From the NCBI RefSeq assembly GCF_024223415.1, contig NZ_CP100500.1: 64,000 nt of DNA; one strand, 5' to 3'. The notes under the pieces were generated by a model. The model made no database searches. It had not been told where the DNA came from and saw nothing but the letters and a program-made list of their open reading frames with translations. Origin of the DNA: Escherichia coli. GTDB lineage: Bacteria > Pseudomonadota > Gammaproteobacteria > Enterobacterales > Enterobacteriaceae. Positions 5,157 to 15,230 of the stretch are shown here, piece after piece (position 1 is the first letter of the stretch; the number at the start of each line of letters is the position of its first letter). A program made the translations under genes and the position numbers.

Positions 5157-5762
5157 GTGGCTATTCCGTATGAACCATACGGAGATTTAACCATGACCTA
5201 CAAATACAACCCCTTCTGGCAGCAACGTATTCGTGAGACGGTGCGGCACGCACTGAATGTTCATCCCCGCCTGACGGCATTGCGGGTTGACCTGCGTTTC
5301 CCGGATGTACCGGCAGCAACGGACGCAGCTGTGATATCCCGCTTCATCAATGCCCTGAAAGCCCGAATCGACGCTTACCAGAAACGTAAGCATCGGGAAG
5401 GTAAACGCGTGCATCCCACCACCCTGCATTACGTCTGGGCCCGGGAGTTTGGGGAGTGCAAAGGTAAAAAACACTATCACCTGATGCTGCTGGTTAACCG
5501 GGATACCTGGTGTCGTGCCGGTGATTACCGTGCTCCGGGATCACTGGCCGGGATGATTAAACAGGCGTGGTGCAGTGCCCTGGGAGTGGATGTCGGGTGC
5601 CATGCCACGCTGGTGCATTTTCCGGCCTGGCCGGCGGTGTGGCTGGAACGCGATGATGACACTGGCTTTCAGCAGGTGCTGGAACGTGCTGACTATCTGG
5701 CGAAGGAACATACCAAAGCTCACTGCACCGGTGAGCGCAATTTTGGCTGTAGCCGGAGTTGA
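5157..5762 (+). CDS. HUH-type rolling-circle Rep-like protein (inovirus Gp2 / YagK-YfjJ-like family)
   Basis: 201-aa ORF with the motif KKHYHLMLLV (His-hydrophobic-His) and candidate Tyr motifs; family assignment from memory, not searched. Confidence 0.55.
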   Translation: MAIPYEPYGDLTMTYKYNPFWQQRIRETVRHALNVHPRLTALRVDLRFPDVPAATDAAVISRFINALKARIDAYQKRKHREGKRVHPTTLHYVWAREFGECKGKKHYHLMLLVNRDTWCRAGDYRAPGSLAGMIKQAWCSALGVDVGCHATLVHFPAWPAVWLERDDDTGFQQVLERADYLAKEHTKAHCTGERNFGCSRS

Positions 5763-6015
5763 GCACGACTGGCGCGCCAATATCCGGCAAACCAAAAGTA
5801 TGGGTTGTTGTCTGGCGGCAACGATGTATCCACTCGCCCACTGACTGTTTTTTACGTCAGTGTTCCATTGTGTGACAACCACAGTGCTGTAACAGCAACC
5901 AGCCTGCTTTACCCAAACTCCAGTCCAGATTTTAACTGAACCGCCATTCACACCCTGACCACGCTGCCCGTACCGGGACGGCTGTTGCCTGCGTGTCGTC
6001 TGGCGGCTGAGGAAT

Positions 6016-6423
6016 ATGACTATGTACGCAAAATCCTTTATCGCTCTTGATGGCAACGGACGTCTGACGGGCGCCCGTACTGCACAGGCCGCACCTTATG
6101 CTAACTACACCTGCCACTTGTGTGGCAGTGCACTCAGATACCATCCGCAATACGACACTGAACTTCCCTGGTTTGAACACACTGACGACAGGCTGACAGA
6201 GCACGGTCAACAGTGCCCTTATGTCAGGCCGGAGCGCAGAGAAATACAGTTGATTAAACGTCTGCAGCAATTCGTACCGGATGCCTTACCCGTGGTGCGT
6301 AAAGCCAGCTGGCACTGCAGACAATGTCACCACGATTATTATGGGGAGCGGTACTGCACACACTGCCAGACCGGAGGATTCAGTATTCCCCGGACAACTC
6401 AGGAGGAAATATGCGAATTCTGA
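6016..6423 (+). CDS. Cys-rich hypothetical protein A (putative double zinc-ribbon)
   Basis: 135-aa ORF; conserved pattern CxxC...PWFEH...C...CxxC...DYxGExxCxxC shared with the next ORF. Confidence 0.55.
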   Translation: MTMYAKSFIALDGNGRLTGARTAQAAPYANYTCHLCGSALRYHPQYDTELPWFEHTDDRLTEHGQQCPYVRPERREIQLIKRLQQFVPDALPVVRKASWHCRQCHHDYYGERYCTHCQTGGFSIPRTTQEEICEF

Positions 6424-6821
6424 ACTGTTATATGGCGAATGACAGCAAAGGCCATTTTGTTACGGCGAAAGAAGCAGCGAAGCACAACCGCCAGGACGTT
6501 TTGTGCTGTGTGTCCTGTGGATGCCCGTTAACACTTCAGCGGGGCAATGACGGACAACCACCGTGGTTTGAACATGACCAGATGACTGTCGCTGAGAAAA
6601 TCCTGCTGCGATGCACCTGGCTTGACCCGGCAGAGAAAGAGGCCCGTCGTTTGCATCTGCAGGGTATGACGGTTCCGGATTATACGGTGAAGGTGAGAAA
6701 GTGGTTTTGTGTGATGTGTGACGAAGATTATGAAGGAGAAAAGTGCTGCCCGCGTTGTGGTACCGGGGTATACAGCAGGGAGGGGGGGCTGCAGGAAGGC
6801 AACTGGAAGGATAGGAACTGA
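6411..6821 (+). CDS. Cys-rich hypothetical protein B, paralogue of A, translationally coupled
   Basis: ATG at 6411 lies just upstream of the stop of the previous ORF (6421-6423); same Cys/PWFEH pattern. Confidence 0.55.
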   Translation: MRILNCYMANDSKGHFVTAKEAAKHNRQDVLCCVSCGCPLTLQRGNDGQPPWFEHDQMTVAEKILLRCTWLDPAEKEARRLHLQGMTVPDYTVKVRKWFCVMCDEDYEGEKCCPRCGTGVYSREGGLQEGNWKDRN

Positions 6822-7024
6822 GCGGTTCAGTCGCGGAAATCAGTTGCAGAGCTGTAATGATATCTCCGGGAGTGCTGCGTTGGTAGGGGCATCCCGGGAT
6901 AGAGAAATTTTAGCACTTTGCCCTGAATGATTGTAGACGTTCCGAGTACTCGTACCGGTCTGAGTTATTACAGTTAGATATTCACTTTTTCTCCCGCATA
7001 CTTCACATCTGTCAACGACGGATG

Positions 7025-8757
7025 AAAAGTGGTTCTTCCGCAACCTGGGTGGAAGAAAATGGATGAAACTTTCTGGCGAACAAGGATCTAAGCTGTTTTA
7101 AGTTATGGGCAACGCAATGCACTCTCTTAAGACACTTCTACAGTTACCTTGCGGATGGCGATGCAGTCGACAAATTATTAGCTCTGACGGTATAACCCTC
7201 CATCTCCACGGAAAACGCAAAACAGCACAATGTCCTGAATGCTTTAAGCGTAGCGACTCTGTTCATAGTTGTCGTCGGCGCCGGATACAGCATCTACCCT
7301 GCTCAGGGCAGACGCTATGGCTTGTATTTTCCGTCCGCCACTGGTACTGCCGTAACCCGGCTTGTTCACGTAAAATTTTTGCCGAGTCGCTTGCTCCCTT
7401 CGCCGGTTCACACCAGCAGTCTTCACAGGCGTTACAAAATTTACAACGTCAACTGGGATTAATAGCTGGAGGTGAGGCTGGAAAACGGGCTGCAACGGCA
7501 GCGGGTCTCCGTTGCAGTGCTGATACTCTTCTTCGCAGGGTATCAATACCCCGGAGACGAAACAGTCAGGCGCGCCTCATGTCGGTATTGATGAGTGGGC
7601 GTGGCATCGGGGCCACTGCTGCGGTATGTTAATAGTCAATCTTGATACTCACCGTCCCCTCGTCCTGCTTCCCGGCCGTGATCAGCGTACGCTGGCGACC
7701 TGGTTCAGAAAATATCCGGAAATACAGGTTGTCTCGCGTGATCGCAGTGGAGTCTATGCGACAGCAGCACGTGAAGGTGCACCTCAGGCCAGACAGGTGG
7801 CCGATCGATGGCACCTGCTAAAAAATATTGGTGATGAGCCTGAACGAATGATGTACAGACATATGCCTCTGATACGTCTTGTTGTCAGAGAGTTATCACT
7901 GAAGAAATCACCTGAGCCAGAAATATCTGTGCCTGTAGCATCGCTCCGTCGTCTGGAACGCCTTAAACAGCACATCCGCAAAAAACGGCATCAGCGTTGG
8001 ACAGAGGTTATGGCCCTGCATAACAAGGGATGTAGTTTCAGGGAAATATCCCGTATTACAGGCCTGTCGCGAGTGACAGTCAGTCGCTGGGTGGGTTCAG
8101 GAACATTCCCTGAAATGTCAACTAGGCCTCCAAAGCGAGGGCTTCTGGACCCATGGAGGGAGTGGTTAAAAGAGCAACGAGAATGTGGTAATTATAACTC
8201 CGGCCGGATATGGCGGGAAATGGTGGCCAGGGGGGTTACAGGCAGTGAAACCATCGTCAGGGATGCTGTTGCCAAATGGCGTAAAGGCTGGATCCCACCG
8301 GTTACTACTGCCGCAAGACTTCCTTCAGTGTCCCGGGTAAGCCGCTGGTTGATGCCCTGGAGAATAATCAGGGGTGAAGAAAATTATGCTTTCCGATTTA
8401 TTAGTCTGATGTGTGAAAAAGAACCGGAGTTGAAAATAGCGCAGCAACTGGTACTCGAGTTCTACCGTATTCTGAAAACCTAAAATAAATCACAGCTAAG
8501 CAGCTGGTTCACTCGGGTCCACGAAAGCGGCTCAGCAGAACTTCGGTGCGTAGCTGCGGGGATGGAAGCTGATGCTGCGGCTATATGTGAGGCAATCAGC
8601 AGTCGCTGGAGTACTGGTGTTGTCGAAGGTCATGTAAATCGCCTGAAGGTGCTGATACGCCAGATGTATGGTCGAGCCGGACTTGAACTACTTAGGCGGA
8701 GGGTAATGAGTCCACTGGCATGAAAATCTTCACCCAGGTTGCGGAAGAGCCACTTTT
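7025..8757 (+). mobile_element. ISL3-family insertion sequence with imperfect terminal inverted repeats, decayed
   Basis: Left end aaaagtggttcttccgcaacctgggtg at about 7025-7051 and its near-perfect reverse complement at about 8731-8757; encloses an ISL3-type transposase. Confidence 0.7.
7105..8722 (+). pseudogene. ISL3-family transposase, disrupted by a frameshift near 7588 and an in-frame TAA at 8481-8483
   Basis: N-terminal zinc-finger region (CPECF...), ...IDEWAWHRGHCCGMLIVNLDTHRPL readable only after a frame change, then ...VVEGHVNRLKVLIRQMYGRAGLELLRRRV continues in frame after the stop. Confidence 0.75.
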
Positions 8758-8766
8758 GCACTGTTC

Positions 8767-9095
8767 GTGACAGTATGGCCTTTATGTACTCACTTTGTTA
8801 CCGGTAGCTGGATCATCACTACCGTGCTGCAAATGGTGGTGAACAGCATCAATTGTGGAATGAATGTTGCCGAAGCGACCAATGCGCCTCGTTTCCACTA
8901 TCAGTGGTTGCCGGACGAGCTGCGTGTTGAAAAGGGTTTAGTCCGGATACGCTCAAGCTGCTGGATGCAAAAGGTCAGAAAGTGGCGCTGAATGAGGCGA
9001 TGGGCAGCACGCAAAGCATTATGGTTGGGTCGGATGGTGAGTTGTACGGCGCATCCGACTCGCGCTTGGTGGATGATTTAACGGCGGGGTATTAA
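8767..9095 (+). pseudogene. ggt: gamma-glutamyltranspeptidase C-terminal fragment, frameshifted in an A-run near 8935
   Basis: GSWIITTVLQMVVNSI...NAPRFHYQWLPDELRVEKG then, after a 1-nt frame change, FSPDTLKLLDAKGQKVALNEAMGSTQSIMVGSDGELYGASDSRLVDDLTAGY; starts directly at the ISL3 right end. Confidence 0.7.
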
Positions 9096-9134
9096 TTGAC
9101 ATCCCCCGGCGCAATGTGCCGGGGGATAATGGTT

Positions 9135-10169
9135 TTATGCGGTCAATAATCGTCCGGGATTATCGATACAGAGTTTTTTGAGGATCGTTTTATCGACGCC
9201 GCGCTCCGCCAGATAGGCCAGAAAAACATCTGGAACAAATCCCCAGCCATTACCGCCATTTTTAGCCCACATTTGTTTAAGGAAGACATCGTGGCTGAGA
9301 ACAAGCTGATCGGCGTATCCCAACTCAATGAGATGAGCGACGGCATCGGCAGTCTCCTGCACCCCTGGCGCTATTCCCTCTTTCGGGAAGGTAATGTCTA
9401 GGCCAATCATGTCGAATTCCAGCCAGACACCTTTATCAAGCATTTTCCGCTGATACGCCACGTCTTTTCCTGACGGATCCGAGTGTGCGAGAGAGACTTT
9501 ATTTGGCGAGACGCCCATTTCACCTAACACAATGTCGAGTACTTCATCACCGCGACGAAGCCAGCCCGGCATGTGAATATTCATCGCCACATGAGGATTG
9601 TTAATCTGTGCCAGCGAGGCAGCCCGCAAGCTGTTATGCTCGGCTTCGGTAAATGTCGGTGAAACACCTATTTCACCGATCATTCCGGCACGAATATCCG
9701 TATCGCCAATCCCTTGATTCAATTCTTTATCGATCGTTGTCGCCAGTTCATCAACCGTTTTATGAATTCTCTGGCTTTCAAATTTTTCCAGGTAGGGACC
9801 GGAGGAAGCAACAATATTCAGACCTGTTTTTAATGCGACTTCTCGTAATGCCTGCGCATCTCGTCCGATAGACTCAGACCCTGTGGCATCAATAATGGTG
9901 CGACCACCGAGCGAGATAAAGTTATTGATTTCGAAGATCACATCTTCAATAGGTTTGCGGTCCATATTATCAGCGCAGCAATAAGGATCGTGTTTTAATG
10001 CCCACTGGATTTCTGCCGTGACTTTTTTATCAACAAGCCGTTGTGAAAAAGGATAGCAAGGAGCATCCACAACAGAGGAAAGATCGTTGAACAGATGTTC
10101 ATGAGGAAGTGTTAGCCCCATATCTTCACGGGCGACGGGGCCCGTCACAGTTTGTAGATAATCTTTCAT
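9135..10169 (-). CDS. phosphotriesterase-family metal-dependent hydrolase (Php-like, TIM-barrel amidohydrolase; possible lactonase)
   Basis: 344 aa; N-terminal GLTLPHEHL metal-binding motif characteristic of the PTE family. Confidence 0.8.
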   Translation of the reverse strand: MKDYLQTVTGPVAREDMGLTLPHEHLFNDLSSVVDAPCYPFSQRLVDKKVTAEIQWALKHDPYCCADNMDRKPIEDVIFEINNFISLGGRTIIDATGSESIGRDAQALREVALKTGLNIVASSGPYLEKFESQRIHKTVDELATTIDKELNQGIGDTDIRAGMIGEIGVSPTFTEAEHNSLRAASLAQINNPHVAMNIHMPGWLRRGDEVLDIVLGEMGVSPNKVSLAHSDPSGKDVAYQRKMLDKGVWLEFDMIGLDITFPKEGIAPGVQETADAVAHLIELGYADQLVLSHDVFLKQMWAKNGGNGWGFVPDVFLAYLAERGVDKTILKKLCIDNPGRLLTA

Positions 10170-10171
10170 GA

Positions 10172-11137
10172 TTATACCTCCATTTTCTTCATTGTTTTCG
10201 AGGTTCTGTATTCCGGAATAGTGGTAACAATTGCACCGACCAGTGCAAACAGTGTTCCGATGATCGTGACCAGATAAACGCTATTGCCCAGCGATGGAAT
10301 TAATACGTCAATCAATACTGATCCCAGTAACTGGCCCGCCGTTGAAGCAACCCCCAGCATCAGTAACCCCAGACCTCTGACCAAAATGGCCATTAAACCG
10401 ATAGACATTAGTCCAAGCGGGCCGCCAAGATACATCCACCAGACATCTGGTAATTGAACAGTGACGTGCCCTAATGCGACACGAATAGCAAGCGCTGTGC
10501 CTAAAACACAAAATCCAACGATGAAATTCTAGGTGATTGAAACCAGCATGGATCCCGTAGCTTCAGCTACTTTTGCATTTCCAGCGGGCTGCCATCCTGC
10601 AAGCAAACCAGCTAAGAACGGAAGAATGGCAAGTAAGATGAAAGAGGTAGAATGCCACTGAGGTGACACAACAAAAATCGTAGCAATAACCGCAAATAAT
10701 GCACCGATGATGCAATAAGGGGTAAAGTATTTTTTCTCGTCGACACCGATACCAAAGCGATCGCAAAGTAAACCAGACAGCAATAGCGCGGAGATCAGTG
10801 CGGTTTGAAACGTTGCGACCCCGAGTGCGCTGGCTGATGCGCCTTCAGAAAATACCACCATCGCTCCACAGAGACCGGCAAACCAGTTCCAGAGAGGAAC
10901 TTTTCGGTTTTTAATCAGAGAAGGAATTGCCGCAAATTGTTGCCGGGTTTCTTTTCGCGCCATAATAATAAAAAACATCACGACTAAACCACTGGCAAAG
11001 GAGATAACTGCGCATGCATTACCATCCTGTAACCAGTGACCTAATTGACCATTCACCGCTGATTGCATAGGGGAGAGCATACCCGCAAGAATCGTGGCAA
11101 GCATCCATAAGGGAGTTGAGTACTTATTCTTTTTCAT
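10172..11137 (-). pseudogene. DMT-superfamily (DUF606/YdcZ-like) membrane transporter interrupted by an in-frame amber codon at 10529-10531
   Basis: ORFs 10529..11137 and 10172..10435 are in the same frame; the sequence between them encodes hydrophobic helix-like residues; the single TAG (plus-strand cta) separates them. Confidence 0.7.
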
Positions 11138-11193
11138 ACATCAATCCTTCTATTATAGTAAATGGAGTAACTGGAGTTACCCCATTATTATTA

Positions 11194-11952
11194 TTATCTT
11201 GCAATATGAGTCAGTATATTTACCCACAACGCGGTATAGAACGGCCAGGACATAAACTGCTGTGTACCCCAGTGCGGTGAACAGTCACTCATAAAGCAGG
11301 CTATTTTCCCGTTGTGATAGTTACCAAAGACCAGTAATGGAGCGTTGTTTATTGTTAATACCACCTCAGCATTTTCTTTAGCGATCGCCCGGTTATAACC
11401 TAGGAAAAAAGGATATTCAGAGAACCCTTTAATAACTGGATGTTCAGGTTGTGATGGCTGTGCAATAACACCCTCTGGTTTTTCGACACGATCGTCACCA
11501 TCTAACATCGTAACCGGGAGCACATCAGCCAGAACTGTATTTTTATAATTGGCTTTTGCTTCAATTCCCATGAATGAGAGATAGCCGCCAATCATCAATA
11601 ACCCACCACCGTTATTCACATATTCTTTAATCAGTTCGAGAGCGTTTGGTTTTATGCGAAGCTGATAAAAAGTATCATTTTGTAGCAGGAAAGTATTACT
11701 ACCAATATCACTAATAACGATGGCATCATATTGTTCTAACTGTGCCACATCTTCAGGGAAGGCAATTTGTACCGTATGTGCTGGCATATAGGTGACATCT
11801 ACCTGACTATTTTTCAGACACTGGAGTAACCAGGTCGCACCTTCTTCATATTTACTTGAGGTAAAACTGTCATATCCTTTTGAATGAATCATATGAATAT
11901 GCCAGGATTCCCCAATAAAGAGCACTTTTAGTGATTTTTTGGTGTTATTCAT
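11194..11952 (-). CDS. ThuA-like / class I glutamine-amidotransferase-like domain protein
   Basis: 252-aa ORF; fold assignment from sequence impression only. Confidence 0.45.
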   Translation of the reverse strand: MNNTKKSLKVLFIGESWHIHMIHSKGYDSFTSSKYEEGATWLLQCLKNSQVDVTYMPAHTVQIAFPEDVAQLEQYDAIVISDIGSNTFLLQNDTFYQLRIKPNALELIKEYVNNGGGLLMIGGYLSFMGIEAKANYKNTVLADVLPVTMLDGDDRVEKPEGVIAQPSQPEHPVIKGFSEYPFFLGYNRAIAKENAEVVLTINNAPLLVFGNYHNGKIACFMSDCSPHWGTQQFMSWPFYTALWVNILTHIAR

Positions 11953-11965
11953 TCTCTGTCCCTTC

Positions 11966-13180
11966 TTAATGCGTAAAAATAGTTTGCTGATAATGTATAC
12001 TCTGAATTCGATGTATCACAGATTCATGTTCAGGCATGTCGGAAGCATTGCTTGTCTCCACCGCTAGGGATGCAAAGGCGCTGGCATAACACAGTGCTGA
12101 TTCCAGTGATTTTCCTTTCGCAAGTCCTGATGCCAGAGAGCCGTTAAACGCATCCCCGGCTCCTGCCGTATTTTTAACGACCGCTGGAAACGCTGGCGAA
12201 TGAATGAATTTTTTGCCATCAAATGCGAGCGAGCCCTTGCTACCGAGCGTGATAACCGTGTTTTTTACCCCTTTATTGTGGATAGCTTCTGCAGCTCGTT
12301 TAGCTGATTCAAGATCGTGTACGTCTATGCCGGACAGTAAACCAGCTTCTGTTTCATTGGGGGTGATATAATCAACATCCTGAATAAGTTCGTTGACGAT
12401 ATCATTATAGGGTGCCGGGTTAATAATGACCGGGATACTGTTTTTTTGCGCCAATGTGATCGCTTGTTGCAGAGCGGTATAATTTGTTTCGAGCTGCAGA
12501 AGTATGACATCAGAATTAATAATCGCTTCTTTCTGAATAGTTATTTCATCGGACGACATTGTCATGTTGGCACCGGGATAGATCGCAATAACATTATCGC
12601 CAGTACCTTCATTAACAAGGATCGTGGCAGTTCCGGTTTGCGTTTCTTTCGTTTGATAAATTATACTTTTATAAATCTTAGACGAATTCATAAAGTTGAT
12701 CGCATAATCACTAAAGTGATCTGTACCTACTTTTGTTATGAAATAAACATCAGTATCGGCAAAGCTTGCTGCCAGCGCCTGGTTACAGCCTTTTCCCCCC
12801 GGTGAAAATATAAAATTACTTGCCAGAAGCGATTCTCCGATAGTGGGAAGCCTCGGCAAATAACTGATGATATCAACATTAAACGAACCAATAACGCATA
12901 CTTGACTTTTCATAGTTGAGTGGCCTTTTTTTATTCCCTGGGCTGTATCATAATTTTCAAGCGCATAAGCGATTTCATTTTTCGCAATAGTATCAAGCGA
13001 GTCTAGGACGATAAAAGCACCGCCATGACATCGAGTCAGATAGCCAAGCCTGGCAAGTTCATTAAGATCTGAACGAATAGTTTCTTTCGTTACATTGAGG
13101 CTATTGGACAGATCGGATACTTTTACAGAACCGAATTTACTGAGTCGTTTCAATATTTCATGATGGCGTTCAAATTTCAT
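11966..13180 (-). CDS. fusion protein: N-terminal DeoR-type HTH plus PfkB/ribokinase-family carbohydrate kinase
   Basis: N-terminus HHEILKRLSKFGSVKVSDLSNSLNVTKETIRSDLNELARLGYL (DeoR HTH); kinase motifs GGKGCNQA and NTAGAGDAFNGSLASGL. Confidence 0.7.
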   Translation of the reverse strand: MKFERHHEILKRLSKFGSVKVSDLSNSLNVTKETIRSDLNELARLGYLTRCHGGAFIVLDSLDTIAKNEIAYALENYDTAQGIKKGHSTMKSQVCVIGSFNVDIISYLPRLPTIGESLLASNFIFSPGGKGCNQALAASFADTDVYFITKVGTDHFSDYAINFMNSSKIYKSIIYQTKETQTGTATILVNEGTGDNVIAIYPGANMTMSSDEITIQKEAIINSDVILLQLETNYTALQQAITLAQKNSIPVIINPAPYNDIVNELIQDVDYITPNETEAGLLSGIDVHDLESAKRAAEAIHNKGVKNTVITLGSKGSLAFDGKKFIHSPAFPAVVKNTAGAGDAFNGSLASGLAKGKSLESALCYASAFASLAVETSNASDMPEHESVIHRIQSIHYQQTIFTH

Positions 13181-13287
13181 GCTTCACCTCACTTCAGTTA
13201 CGTTAATATCTATCGATGTATATTGATGTGATAATCACCATAAAGTGGCGGGGAAAAGCAAAAAAAAGCAAAAATAGCCTGAGAAAA

Positions 13288-13850
13288 GGTAAGCGTTAAT
13301 GGAGAATCATATTGATGCTTATTTATTGGTGAGAACTACGTTCCATGGCAGGAGTTCATCAATACGGTTGGAAGGTTATTCCGGCAGTACGCTCAGGATA
13401 TGGCGCAGATACGCTTCCGGATCAATGTCGTTCAGAAGGCAAGTGCCGATAAGCCCATACAACAGTGCACTGCGCTCGCCGCCGAAGAACATAAAGTTTT
13501 TATTTCCGAGACAGATGGCACAAAGGGCTTTTTCCGCGGCATTATGTCTGCCTCCGCCTGACCGTCAACACTGTAATAACAGAGTGCGCCCCACTGATTC
13601 AGTACACAGCTGAACCATTCTCCCAGTCTGGATTTTTGGATAGCGTGGCATTTTTCTCCACCATGCATGCAGTGAGTCCAGTAACAGTTTGCTCTTCTTC
13701 TGCCTGACCACAAGATGTGCTGGACTGGTAAACGATGGGGATACCTGCTTACGCGAGAGCAATAAGTGGCTGGCCACAATTCTCGGTACAAAACTCTGCT
13801 GAATAGCAGCGATTTTCCCAGCGTGGTGCGTCGTTTTCATTTTACTGGTT
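13288..13850 (-). mobile_element. IS66-family remnant: terminal repeat (GTAAGCG at 13288) plus frameshifted 3' part of a transposase gene
   Basis: Minus-strand translation near 13327-13380 gives PSNRIDELLPWNVVLTNK*, resembling the IS66 transposase C-terminus; upstream frames are broken. Confidence 0.6.
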
Positions 13851-15230
13851 CTAAGTTAACAATTATCTGTTCACTAATGACTACTCTAAAAACTTGTATC
13901 AGGACTATCACTTATTTAAGTGATATTGGTTGTCTGGAGATTCAGGGGGCCAGTCTATAAACTTTTTACAAAAGGATGAATGCAGAAGGTTACTCTAATG
14001 GCCAGAGTGATGACAATGATGGTCAGACGTTGACCTGCAGAAACTGCATTTTAATTGGTCTATAAAGTCTGCAAGAGGAATCAGGGTCAGATCAGTGAGT
14101 CTTATCGCGGCCCGAAGCTATGACTGAAAGAAGGCTGGATACAGAATTGCAACAATTTGGCAATGTCAGAACACAGAAGCTTTGCAAGCAGGTGAAAGGT
14201 TATGTCTAGCAAAAGGAGTATATCAGAATACATCTACTGATGTACAAAACACAACAATAGCTTCATGATATATAAATACGTGATGACGAGTGGTACTCCG
14301 CATGGTTATTTAACTTCTCAGCACCACTAATGATCCTGAGCAACTTCGTATTTGGGCCATTGCCATGGAGTAGAAAGCTGTGTCTGAGAATGCAGAATTT
14401 GAGAAAAGAATTCGCTTTCTTGGAGAGCTTCTGAAAATGGCACGCTAACAACGTTTTGTTAAAAAATGTGAATCACTTGCCGGGGCTGCATTTTCTATTC
14501 GAGGAGAATGTTGACGTAGATATTACAGAAATCTCAGCGCATCAGGATAAACTGCTACCTTAGGTCAACCACCAAAAGAAAATACAATACGTCCAGTTTG
14601 TATGCCTTTAATAACACATCTTCTAAATGTTGAAGAATTATCCCGCCTGCTGAAGAACGTTGCTCTGAGTGTGATAAACCTTTTTATTCTTGATGATGTC
14701 AGCGAGAAGATGGAATATATCCCCGACTGGGTCGTGGTTACCCGGTTAAACATCTGGTGGCGCTAATAAATCTGGCAAGTCACATTCTGTTGAATGCTGT
14801 GACAGTGCCTTACCGAGAGAGCGAAATTGTGGTGTTCTAGTGCATAGTCGCCACCATTCCGGATAATTCTATTGCGTTGTTTTACAAGTTCTTTTACAGC
14901 GCAGATCTGTTGCTGACGTTGAATCAATAGCCTGGATTTCAGAACACAATGCCCGTTTGCTGGTTGGTCCGGCAGTAGCATTAATTCATTATCTGAATGA
15001 AATGTGTCAATCCACAGAAACCGCTGTCAATGACACATTTTGTCGGACGTTAACACGAGAAAGTCTGGCTATTCCGTAATGCCATCTTATTTCGTAATGG
15101 ATTGAGAATGCTGGATTTTTAATTATATTACGCGCAGTATTAATCGCGTAAATGTTTTGCGGTCAGCAACGGTGGGGGATCCATTGTTCTGTTCAATGAA
15201 TACCATCATACATTTGAATCAGGAGTCGGT

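Follow-up and report, generated by a model that had tools for sequence, protein, structure and literature searches.

A defective copy of the ISL3-family insertion sequence ISEc38 is followed, in the Escherichia coli DNA analysed here, by a short spacer, a 3' fragment of the gamma-glutamyltransferase gene ggt, a G+C-rich hairpin and, on the opposite strand, a four-gene operon (Table 1). Positions refer to the window, by which we mean the whole 64,000-nt stretch of contig NZ_CP100500.1 that was analysed. The DNA to the left of ISEc38 is unrelated island DNA with zinc-ribbon/DUF7828 genes, and past approximately 13275 there are IS66 and IS4 remnants, a cbi gene stub and cobU. RefSeq labels both the transposase gene and the ggt fragment as pseudogenes and then annotates a convergent 'phosphotriesterase-related protein'.

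Table 1. Features of the junction and the adjoining operon, with positions in the window
Feature	Position	Strand	Basis
Defective ISEc38 copy (ISL3 family), 1763 bp	7010..8772	+	Ends by alignment with intact plasmid copies
ISEc38 left terminal inverted repeat	7010..7051	+	Repeat pair; homology to other copies from T7010
ISEc38 transposase pseudogene	7105..8723	+	Pfam; alignment and reconstruction; RefSeq 'frameshifted; internal stop'
ISEc38 right terminal inverted repeat	8731..8772	+	Repeat pair; homology to other copies up to A8772
Spacer, 24 nt, between IS end and ggt fragment	8773..8796	+	No ggt homology
ggt 3' fragment, Ggt residues ~478-580	8797..9095	+	Alignments, Pfam; RefSeq 'gamma-glutamyltransferase, frameshifted; incomplete; missing N-terminus'
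G+C-rich hairpin, 12 bp stem	9101..9127		Terminator scan; dG -24.6 kcal/mol, z = -3.9
Phosphotriesterase-family gene (php-like, STM3550 homologue), intact	9135..10169	-	Pfam PTE 9e-47
DMT/YdcZ-type transporter gene (STM3549 homologue), internal stop	10172..11137	-	DMT_YdcZ on both halves; RefSeq 'internal stop'
GATase1-like gene (STM3548 homologue)	11194..11952	-	Pfam GATase1_like 1e-111; synteny
DeoR-HTH/PfkB kinase gene (RikA/STM3547 homologue)	11966..13180	-	Pfam HTH_DeoR and PfkB; synteny; PMC13432705
Conserved region upstream of PfkB gene, far end of block	13181..13275	-	blastn

The preliminary description of this DNA had recognised a decayed ISL3 element with legible inverted repeats, and both observations hold. 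Pfam matched Zn_ribbon_ISL3 (PF14690, 1.1e-7) and both halves of DDE_Tnp_ISL3 (PF01610, 1.8e-11 and 4.1e-8) on the broken transposase ORF. A megablast search against plasmids returned hundreds of copies, approximately 95% identical, that are named 'ISL3-like element ISEc38 family transposase'; the identity of the window IS to plasmid ISEc38 copies was 95.0-95.5% over 98-99% of the query. Like intact ISEc38 (e.g. WP_075262665.1, from E. coli IncF plasmids), which measures 1764 bp, the window copy has the termini TGTCAACG...CGTGACA and a 539-codon ORF encoding an ISL3 zinc ribbon at the N terminus and a DDE_Tnp_ISL3 domain that is split. Two intact copies, when aligned with it, place the left end at T7010 (TGTCAACGACGG...) and the right end at A8772 (...GTTCGTGACA), so the element extends approximately 15 bp further to the left and 5 bp further to the right than the limits of 7025 and 8767 given for it earlier. 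The inverted repeats form an imperfect pair of 43 nt (7009-7051 and 8731-8773) that is 81% complementary and agrees with the ISEc38 ends.

The window copy is thus a member of ISEc38 by descent, yet it is defective, with a broken transposase frame. Both of the lesions reported earlier, a frameshift and an in-frame TAA, are real. Position 7541 is a single T in place of the TT of intact ISEc38 copies, a 1-nt deletion that shifts the transposase frame, and CAA has changed to TAA at 8481-8483, placing an in-frame stop at codon 460 of 539 (Q460*). The transposase ORF is 95.4% identical to that of an intact copy at the nucleotide level, with 74 nucleotide differences and 37 amino-acid replacements. 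Whereas intact copies are plasmid-borne and active, the copy in the window is dead and forms a fixed chromosomal relic that roughly one in two complete E. coli genomes contains. The annotation of this IS copy in strains S171-1, GPEC1035 and CUVET18-789 gives the internal stop only, without the frameshift, which indicates that the TAA stop is the older of the two lesions. An 8-bp target-site duplication is typical of the ISL3 family. The flanks of the IS in the window (TTCACATC and GTATGGCC) differ from each other, so there is no target-site duplication here; however, an 8-bp duplication is equally missing from four independent, intact copies of ISEc38 on plasmids. Its absence is therefore uninformative either way, and we dropped the target-site duplication as a means of telling simple insertion from IS-mediated deletion. 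ISEc38 is a named element that is regularly listed in E. coli genome and MGE surveys.

The second pseudogene had been described as the C-terminal 100 or so amino acids of a gamma-glutamyltranspeptidase distinct from the native gene, frameshifted by one base in an A-run, and this reading proved correct on each count. DNA alignment with the ggt genes of K-12, Salmonella and Citrobacter detects homology that starts at 8797 (GTTACCGGTAGC) and reaches as far as the stop codon (9093-9095), while the GTG at 8767, where the mechanically called ORF starts, falls inside the IS end. When the frame is corrected, the fragment aligns with residues 477-580 of E. coli K-12 Ggt at 86% identity (BLASTP, E = 4e-60), so that the assignment stands in a translated alignment. 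Pfam matched G_glu_transpept (PF01019, 3.7e-10), and blastn against native ggt gave E = 3e-114. The homology is not chance similarity.

At the nucleotide level, the fragment is 92.3% identical to the gene for E. coli K-12 Ggt (b3447, glutathione hydrolase proenzyme, 580 aa) and has the same stop position, but it retains only approximately the last 100 codons and continues into a different 3' flank. The frameshift is a 1-nt deletion that leaves A4 instead of A5 at 8930-8933. In addition, we found a 12-bp in-frame deletion (CCAGGCGGTAGC) at 8808/8809, between GGTAGC repeats, that removes four codons and was absent from the preliminary description. There are 22 substitutions relative to K-12, nine of which are replacements at residues that are invariant in K-12 and four Salmonella/Citrobacter sequences, and these nine indicate relaxed constraint on the fragment. 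The first 477 or so codons are gone, and with them the signal peptide, the large subunit and the start of the small subunit that make up the complete proenzyme. The nucleophile, which we take to be Thr391 in the published numbering of E. coli Ggt, falls in the missing part. What the fragment represents is only the tail of the small subunit, and no enzyme can be encoded by it.

Contrary to the earlier statement, the right repeat and this fragment are not directly adjacent. Between the two lies the 24-mer GTATGGCCTTTATGTACTCACTTT, which matches K-12 ggt at 8 of 24 positions and is neither ggt nor IS sequence. No other copy of this spacer was present within the window, even when 3 mismatches were allowed, and among the loci that we fetched it occurred only at the same locus and nowhere else. 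Since the spacer separates them, the IS end did not directly make the ggt breakpoint that is seen today.

On its other side, the ggt fragment is convergent with the php-like gene, and the hairpin lies between the two. The operon to which this gene belongs has a known counterpart. The rikA (STM3547)-STM3550 cluster of S. Typhimurium was described in a 2026 paper in which RikA is reported to have ribose-kinase activity, and the cluster is conserved in Citrobacter, Escherichia, Budvicia and Proteus (PMC13432705). The four genes in the window belong to the same four families, in the same order and orientation, as rikA (STM3547)-STM3548-STM3549-STM3550 (PMC13432705). Their proteins have 80-96% amino acid identity to the versions in S. 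diarizonae and Citrobacter, and the php-like protein is 85-88% identical to the Salmonella and Citrobacter proteins encoded beside native ggt. The gene for the DMT/YdcZ-type transporter, which carries an internal stop in the window, is intact in strain GPEC1035. At the far end of the operon, a stretch of 127 nt across the start of the PfkB gene matches S. diarizonae and S. bongori at 90% identity (blastn), and this similarity ends at approximately 13275. The setting of the cluster differs between genera. In Salmonella and Citrobacter it forms part of the core chromosome, between yhhY and native ggt, whereas in E. coli it is found in an IS-littered island beside cobUST and is accompanied by a ggt stub only.

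We scanned one genome per bacterial species (GTDB representatives) for the php-like protein and obtained 79 listed loci in addition to 33 weaker candidates. In the listed loci, the set of PfkB, GATase1-like, DMT and PTE genes is kept in Salmonella, Citrobacter, Budvicia, Providencia, Klebsiella spallanzanii and Proteus (tblastn). S. enterica diarizonae and three Citrobacter species have ggt convergent to the PTE gene at a distance of approximately 50 bp; the Citrobacter loci contain the whole of this ggt, and the S. diarizonae locus that was retrieved ends inside it. The gene order in these loci is gntR-yhhW-yhhX-ryhB-yhhY-[operon]-ggt-yhhA-ugpQ-ugpC, and S. bongori shares it. In every other genus examined, the ggt beside the operon is the single native gene in its ugp-yhhA context and not an extra copy. 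K-12 is syntenic with Salmonella and Citrobacter in the surroundings of this slot, but it has yhhZ-yrhA-yrhD-yrhB where they have the operon.

The homology of the window to the Salmonella and Citrobacter loci runs from 8797, inside ggt, to approximately 13275, some 95 nt upstream of the PfkB start. It includes the intergenic region, where the window, like the Salmonella and Citrobacter loci, has a G+C-rich hairpin at the corresponding place. This hairpin is predicted to be a bidirectional terminator and is likely to have been inherited from the ancestral junction between ggt and the operon. No Escherichia locus with a php-like gene was among the 79 listed in the species-representative scan, nor did any of the listed loci represent a donor genome with an Escherichia-type ggt beside the operon. 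P0007, the only php-like protein of intermediate identity (91%) that bears an E. coli label, was rejected as a sign of a closer donor, as it is a 315-aa, shortened variant of the protein encoded at the same cobU-adjacent locus.

Despite the resemblance of its surroundings to Salmonella and Citrobacter, the ggt fragment itself is of the Escherichia type, since it is 92.3% identical to K-12 ggt at the nucleotide level versus 80-82% for the ggt genes of Salmonella and Citrobacter. For comparison, K-12 ggt is 83-84% identical to these same genes. The closeness to E. coli ggt is what might suggest a recent ectopic duplicate, or a gene-conversion product, of the native gene that has nothing to do with the operon. 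Several observations make such an origin very improbable. In a sample spread across the 5,375 genomes that matched, native ggt covers only 8802-9095, at 90.5-92.5%, and no native ggt was more than 92.5% identical to the fragment. At every native E. coli ggt locus, the homology to the fragment ends at the stop codon. Beyond that point, the window has the hairpin and then the convergent php-like gene, which is the layout of the Salmonella and Citrobacter ggt/operon junction. The fragment also keeps ancestral states where K-12 is derived, namely an ATG Met codon at 8860, AGC at 9006 and GAT at 9033. Recent duplication of the native gene was rejected on the end of the homology at the stop codon and on the ceiling of 92.5% among the sampled native alleles.

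The arrangement is widespread in E. coli. Positions 6900-9200 are 100% identical in many complete chromosomes, including those of Combat11I9, S88, 55989 and O104:H4. In Combat11I9 the region is situated in an IS-rich island just upstream of cobU-cobS-cobT and near asn-tRNA genes. At a query cover of at least 80%, the IS together with the ggt stub was found in 2,588 genomes, and the stub together with the PTE-like gene was found in 2,615 of 5,426 complete E. coli genomes. Matches to the left flank at other coordinates (H92, H112, H116 and H130) turned out to be the same locus in genomes that are renumbered or partly deleted. Every sampled E. coli copy has in common the truncation, the 24-nt spacer, the 12-bp deletion and the A-run frameshift, and this sharing points to a single old event.

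The same distribution bears on the question of whether the two pseudogenes are real. The loss of a single base from a homopolymer, as in the A-run (8930-8933), is a frequent kind of sequencing error, and sequencing or assembly errors in two genes that are really intact could in principle be imagined. The chance of this is negligible. The A-run deletion, the 12-bp deletion and the truncation recur in independent assemblies, thousands of complete genomes carry the same lesions at 99-100% identity, and the TAA stop of the transposase is common to other strains too. Moreover, some 477 codons of ggt are missing from the fragment in any reading frame.

A weightier alternative is the one put forward in the preliminary description, that the island once included a paralogous ggt, which was truncated by the insertion or an adjacent deletion. 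In its full form, the island would have held a complete and possibly functional second ggt, from which the insertion of ISEc38 and an adjacent deletion removed the 5' part of approximately 1.4 kb in situ. IS-mediated adjacent deletions are a well-established process. The IS lies only 24 nt from the breakpoint, the island DNA to its left is unrelated, so that some rearrangement at the IS is required, and there is no target-site duplication, although that is equally true of the intact plasmid copies. A full-length second ggt could also have arrived with the block and been shortened later, in which case its absence from the sampled genomes would be compatible with this history.

We nevertheless consider truncation in situ unlikely. 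A chimeric query (the 5' part of K-12 ggt, the window ggt fragment and the php-like gene) was matched at a cover of at least 80% in 0 of 5,426 complete E. coli genomes, which leaves no intact or longer ggt beside the php-like gene in this set, and the comparison with genomes carrying an intact ggt at this site thus yielded no case. Likewise, a joined-flank query found an IS-free junction in 0 of the 5,426. The breakpoint is identical in all sampled copies, and it is set apart from the IS end by 24 nt that belong to neither ggt nor the IS. The other genera examined have a single native ggt in this position, so that an incomplete ggt where the block ends is what would be expected. As worded, the claim of a paralogous ggt in the island is unsupported; the observations describe instead the edge of a block from the neighbourhood of native ggt, with no longer copy found.

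Our preferred reading is that the ggt stub is the cut edge of a relocated Escherichia-type block, for which no working second ggt is needed, and we regard this as highly probable. A partial ggt is expected without a working paralogue if the boundary of a transferred segment happened to fall inside the neighbouring ggt. According to this explanation, a block of approximately 4.5 kb (8797-13275 in the window) would come from an Escherichia-type chromosome, where it lay in the yhhY-ggt interval, and would have been copied or moved into the cobU-adjacent island. Its cargo would have comprised the last 300 bp or so of ggt, the terminator hairpin, the four-gene rikA-type operon and about 95 bp of its upstream region. 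The ggt piece would then be collateral DNA at the edge of the block that has decayed since. The block is bounded by ISEc38 on one side and by an IS66-family remnant on the other. The ISEc38 transposase was lost first to the nonsense mutation and then, in this lineage, to the frameshift. From the identities, boundaries, lesions, synteny and distribution that we observed, we infer the direction of the move and its mechanism, IS-associated recombination or deletion, and also that a complete second ggt was never present. The region as it exists today is a junction scar in the E. coli island beside cobUST and has no function of its own.

A broader history of the operon may be suggested, for which we see about an even chance. 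The rikA-type operon would have been a neighbour of ggt in the core chromosome of the ancestor of Escherichia, Salmonella and Citrobacter and would have been lost from the E. coli slot, now occupied by yhhZ-yrhA-yrhB. Roughly half of the strains would keep only the stub-bearing island copy, derived from an Escherichia lineage that is now unsampled. By a rough count over 288 bp, the synonymous divergence of the stub from native ggt is approximately 0.17-0.19, which exceeds that of all E. coli alleles sampled. If this history is true, the scrap of ggt is a molecular timestamp for the relocation of the operon from core to island.

In itself, the locus is an old fixed scar that is already known and correctly annotated by RefSeq. 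It matters little as such, being non-functional and, in thousands of genomes, correctly labelled by the NCBI pipeline. Together, the stub and the conserved hairpin point to the yhhY-ggt interval as the origin of the E. coli copy of rikA/STM3547-3550, an operon that is poorly understood. This origin of the block and its stub is the only mildly new point, and it may help in the study of how the operon evolved. As a conjecture, the dead chromosomal ISEc38 could explain some of the ISEc38 entries in MGE surveys.

We found that the ggt stub, the truncated 3' ggt fragment beside the defective ISL3-family insertion sequence (dead ISEc38), exists as a more divergent allele in E. coli TW10590. This allele is truncated and frameshifted like the window copy and has the same 12-bp deletion, and yet it still reads CAT (His), the ancestral state, at window position 8899 and keeps GAA at about 8966, so point decay went on after the structural lesions had been acquired. 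Decay also extends to the relocated rikA-type operon itself in some lineages, since its DMT/YdcZ transporter gene is broken in the window and intact in strain GPEC1035. Across this operon overall, identity to S. diarizonae and S. bongori is approximately 75-76%, whereas the ~127 nt around the start and upstream region of the PfkB/rikA gene (13150-13275) are 90% identical to both, and this difference suggests a conserved promoter or operator there.

One feature of the ISEc38 transposase is a trait of the element and not a product of decay, since it is also present in the intact plasmid copies L002 and L003. This feature is an insertion of ~200 residues (window 7626-8483) that contains matches to the helix-turn-helix profiles HTH_7 and HTH_38 and splits the ISL3 DDE domain, which aligns over profile positions 19-105 and then 168-239. 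An 8-bp target-site duplication is usual in the ISL3 family; none was obvious at four independent intact plasmid copies of ISEc38 (L002, L003, L090 and L091), and a possible 5-bp AGTAC repeat flanks the copy in L091.

The same island segment, including the Gp2-family gene, the zinc-ribbon genes, the dead ISEc38, the ggt stub and the phosphotriesterase-like (PTE-like) gene, was found on pARG01, a conjugative IncF plasmid carried by E. coli JL05 (NZ_CP049937.1). In addition, window 7000-8790, which comprises the IS and the sequence immediately on either side of it, has a 99.5% match to NZ_CP079635.1, a 1-Mb record labelled as a Klebsiella pneumoniae plasmid. These two matches could be real captures, or the records could be mislabelled or misassembled.

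Features flanking or within the relocated block (window coordinates; those of the last row derive from the annotation of comparison locus L001, offset 5101)
Feature	Coordinates	Strand	Remark
Gene of the YagK/YfjJ-type 'inovirus Gp2 family'; two overlapping DUF7828 + zinc-ribbon paralogues in tandem	~5157-6821	+	Upstream of dead ISEc38
DMT/YdcZ transporter gene, rikA-type operon	10172-11137	-	Internal stop gives two ORFs, 10529-11137 and 10172-10435
IS66-family transposase, IS4-family transposase remnants and 'cobalamin biosynthesis protein' stub	~13376-15100		Between relocated block and cobU

Paralogous copies of the genes upstream of the IS occur in other E. coli islands, where the match ends at ~6796. 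On the far side of the relocated block, the 'cobalamin biosynthesis protein' stub is consistent with what is known of E. coli, which has lost the cbi operon that lay upstream of cobUST.
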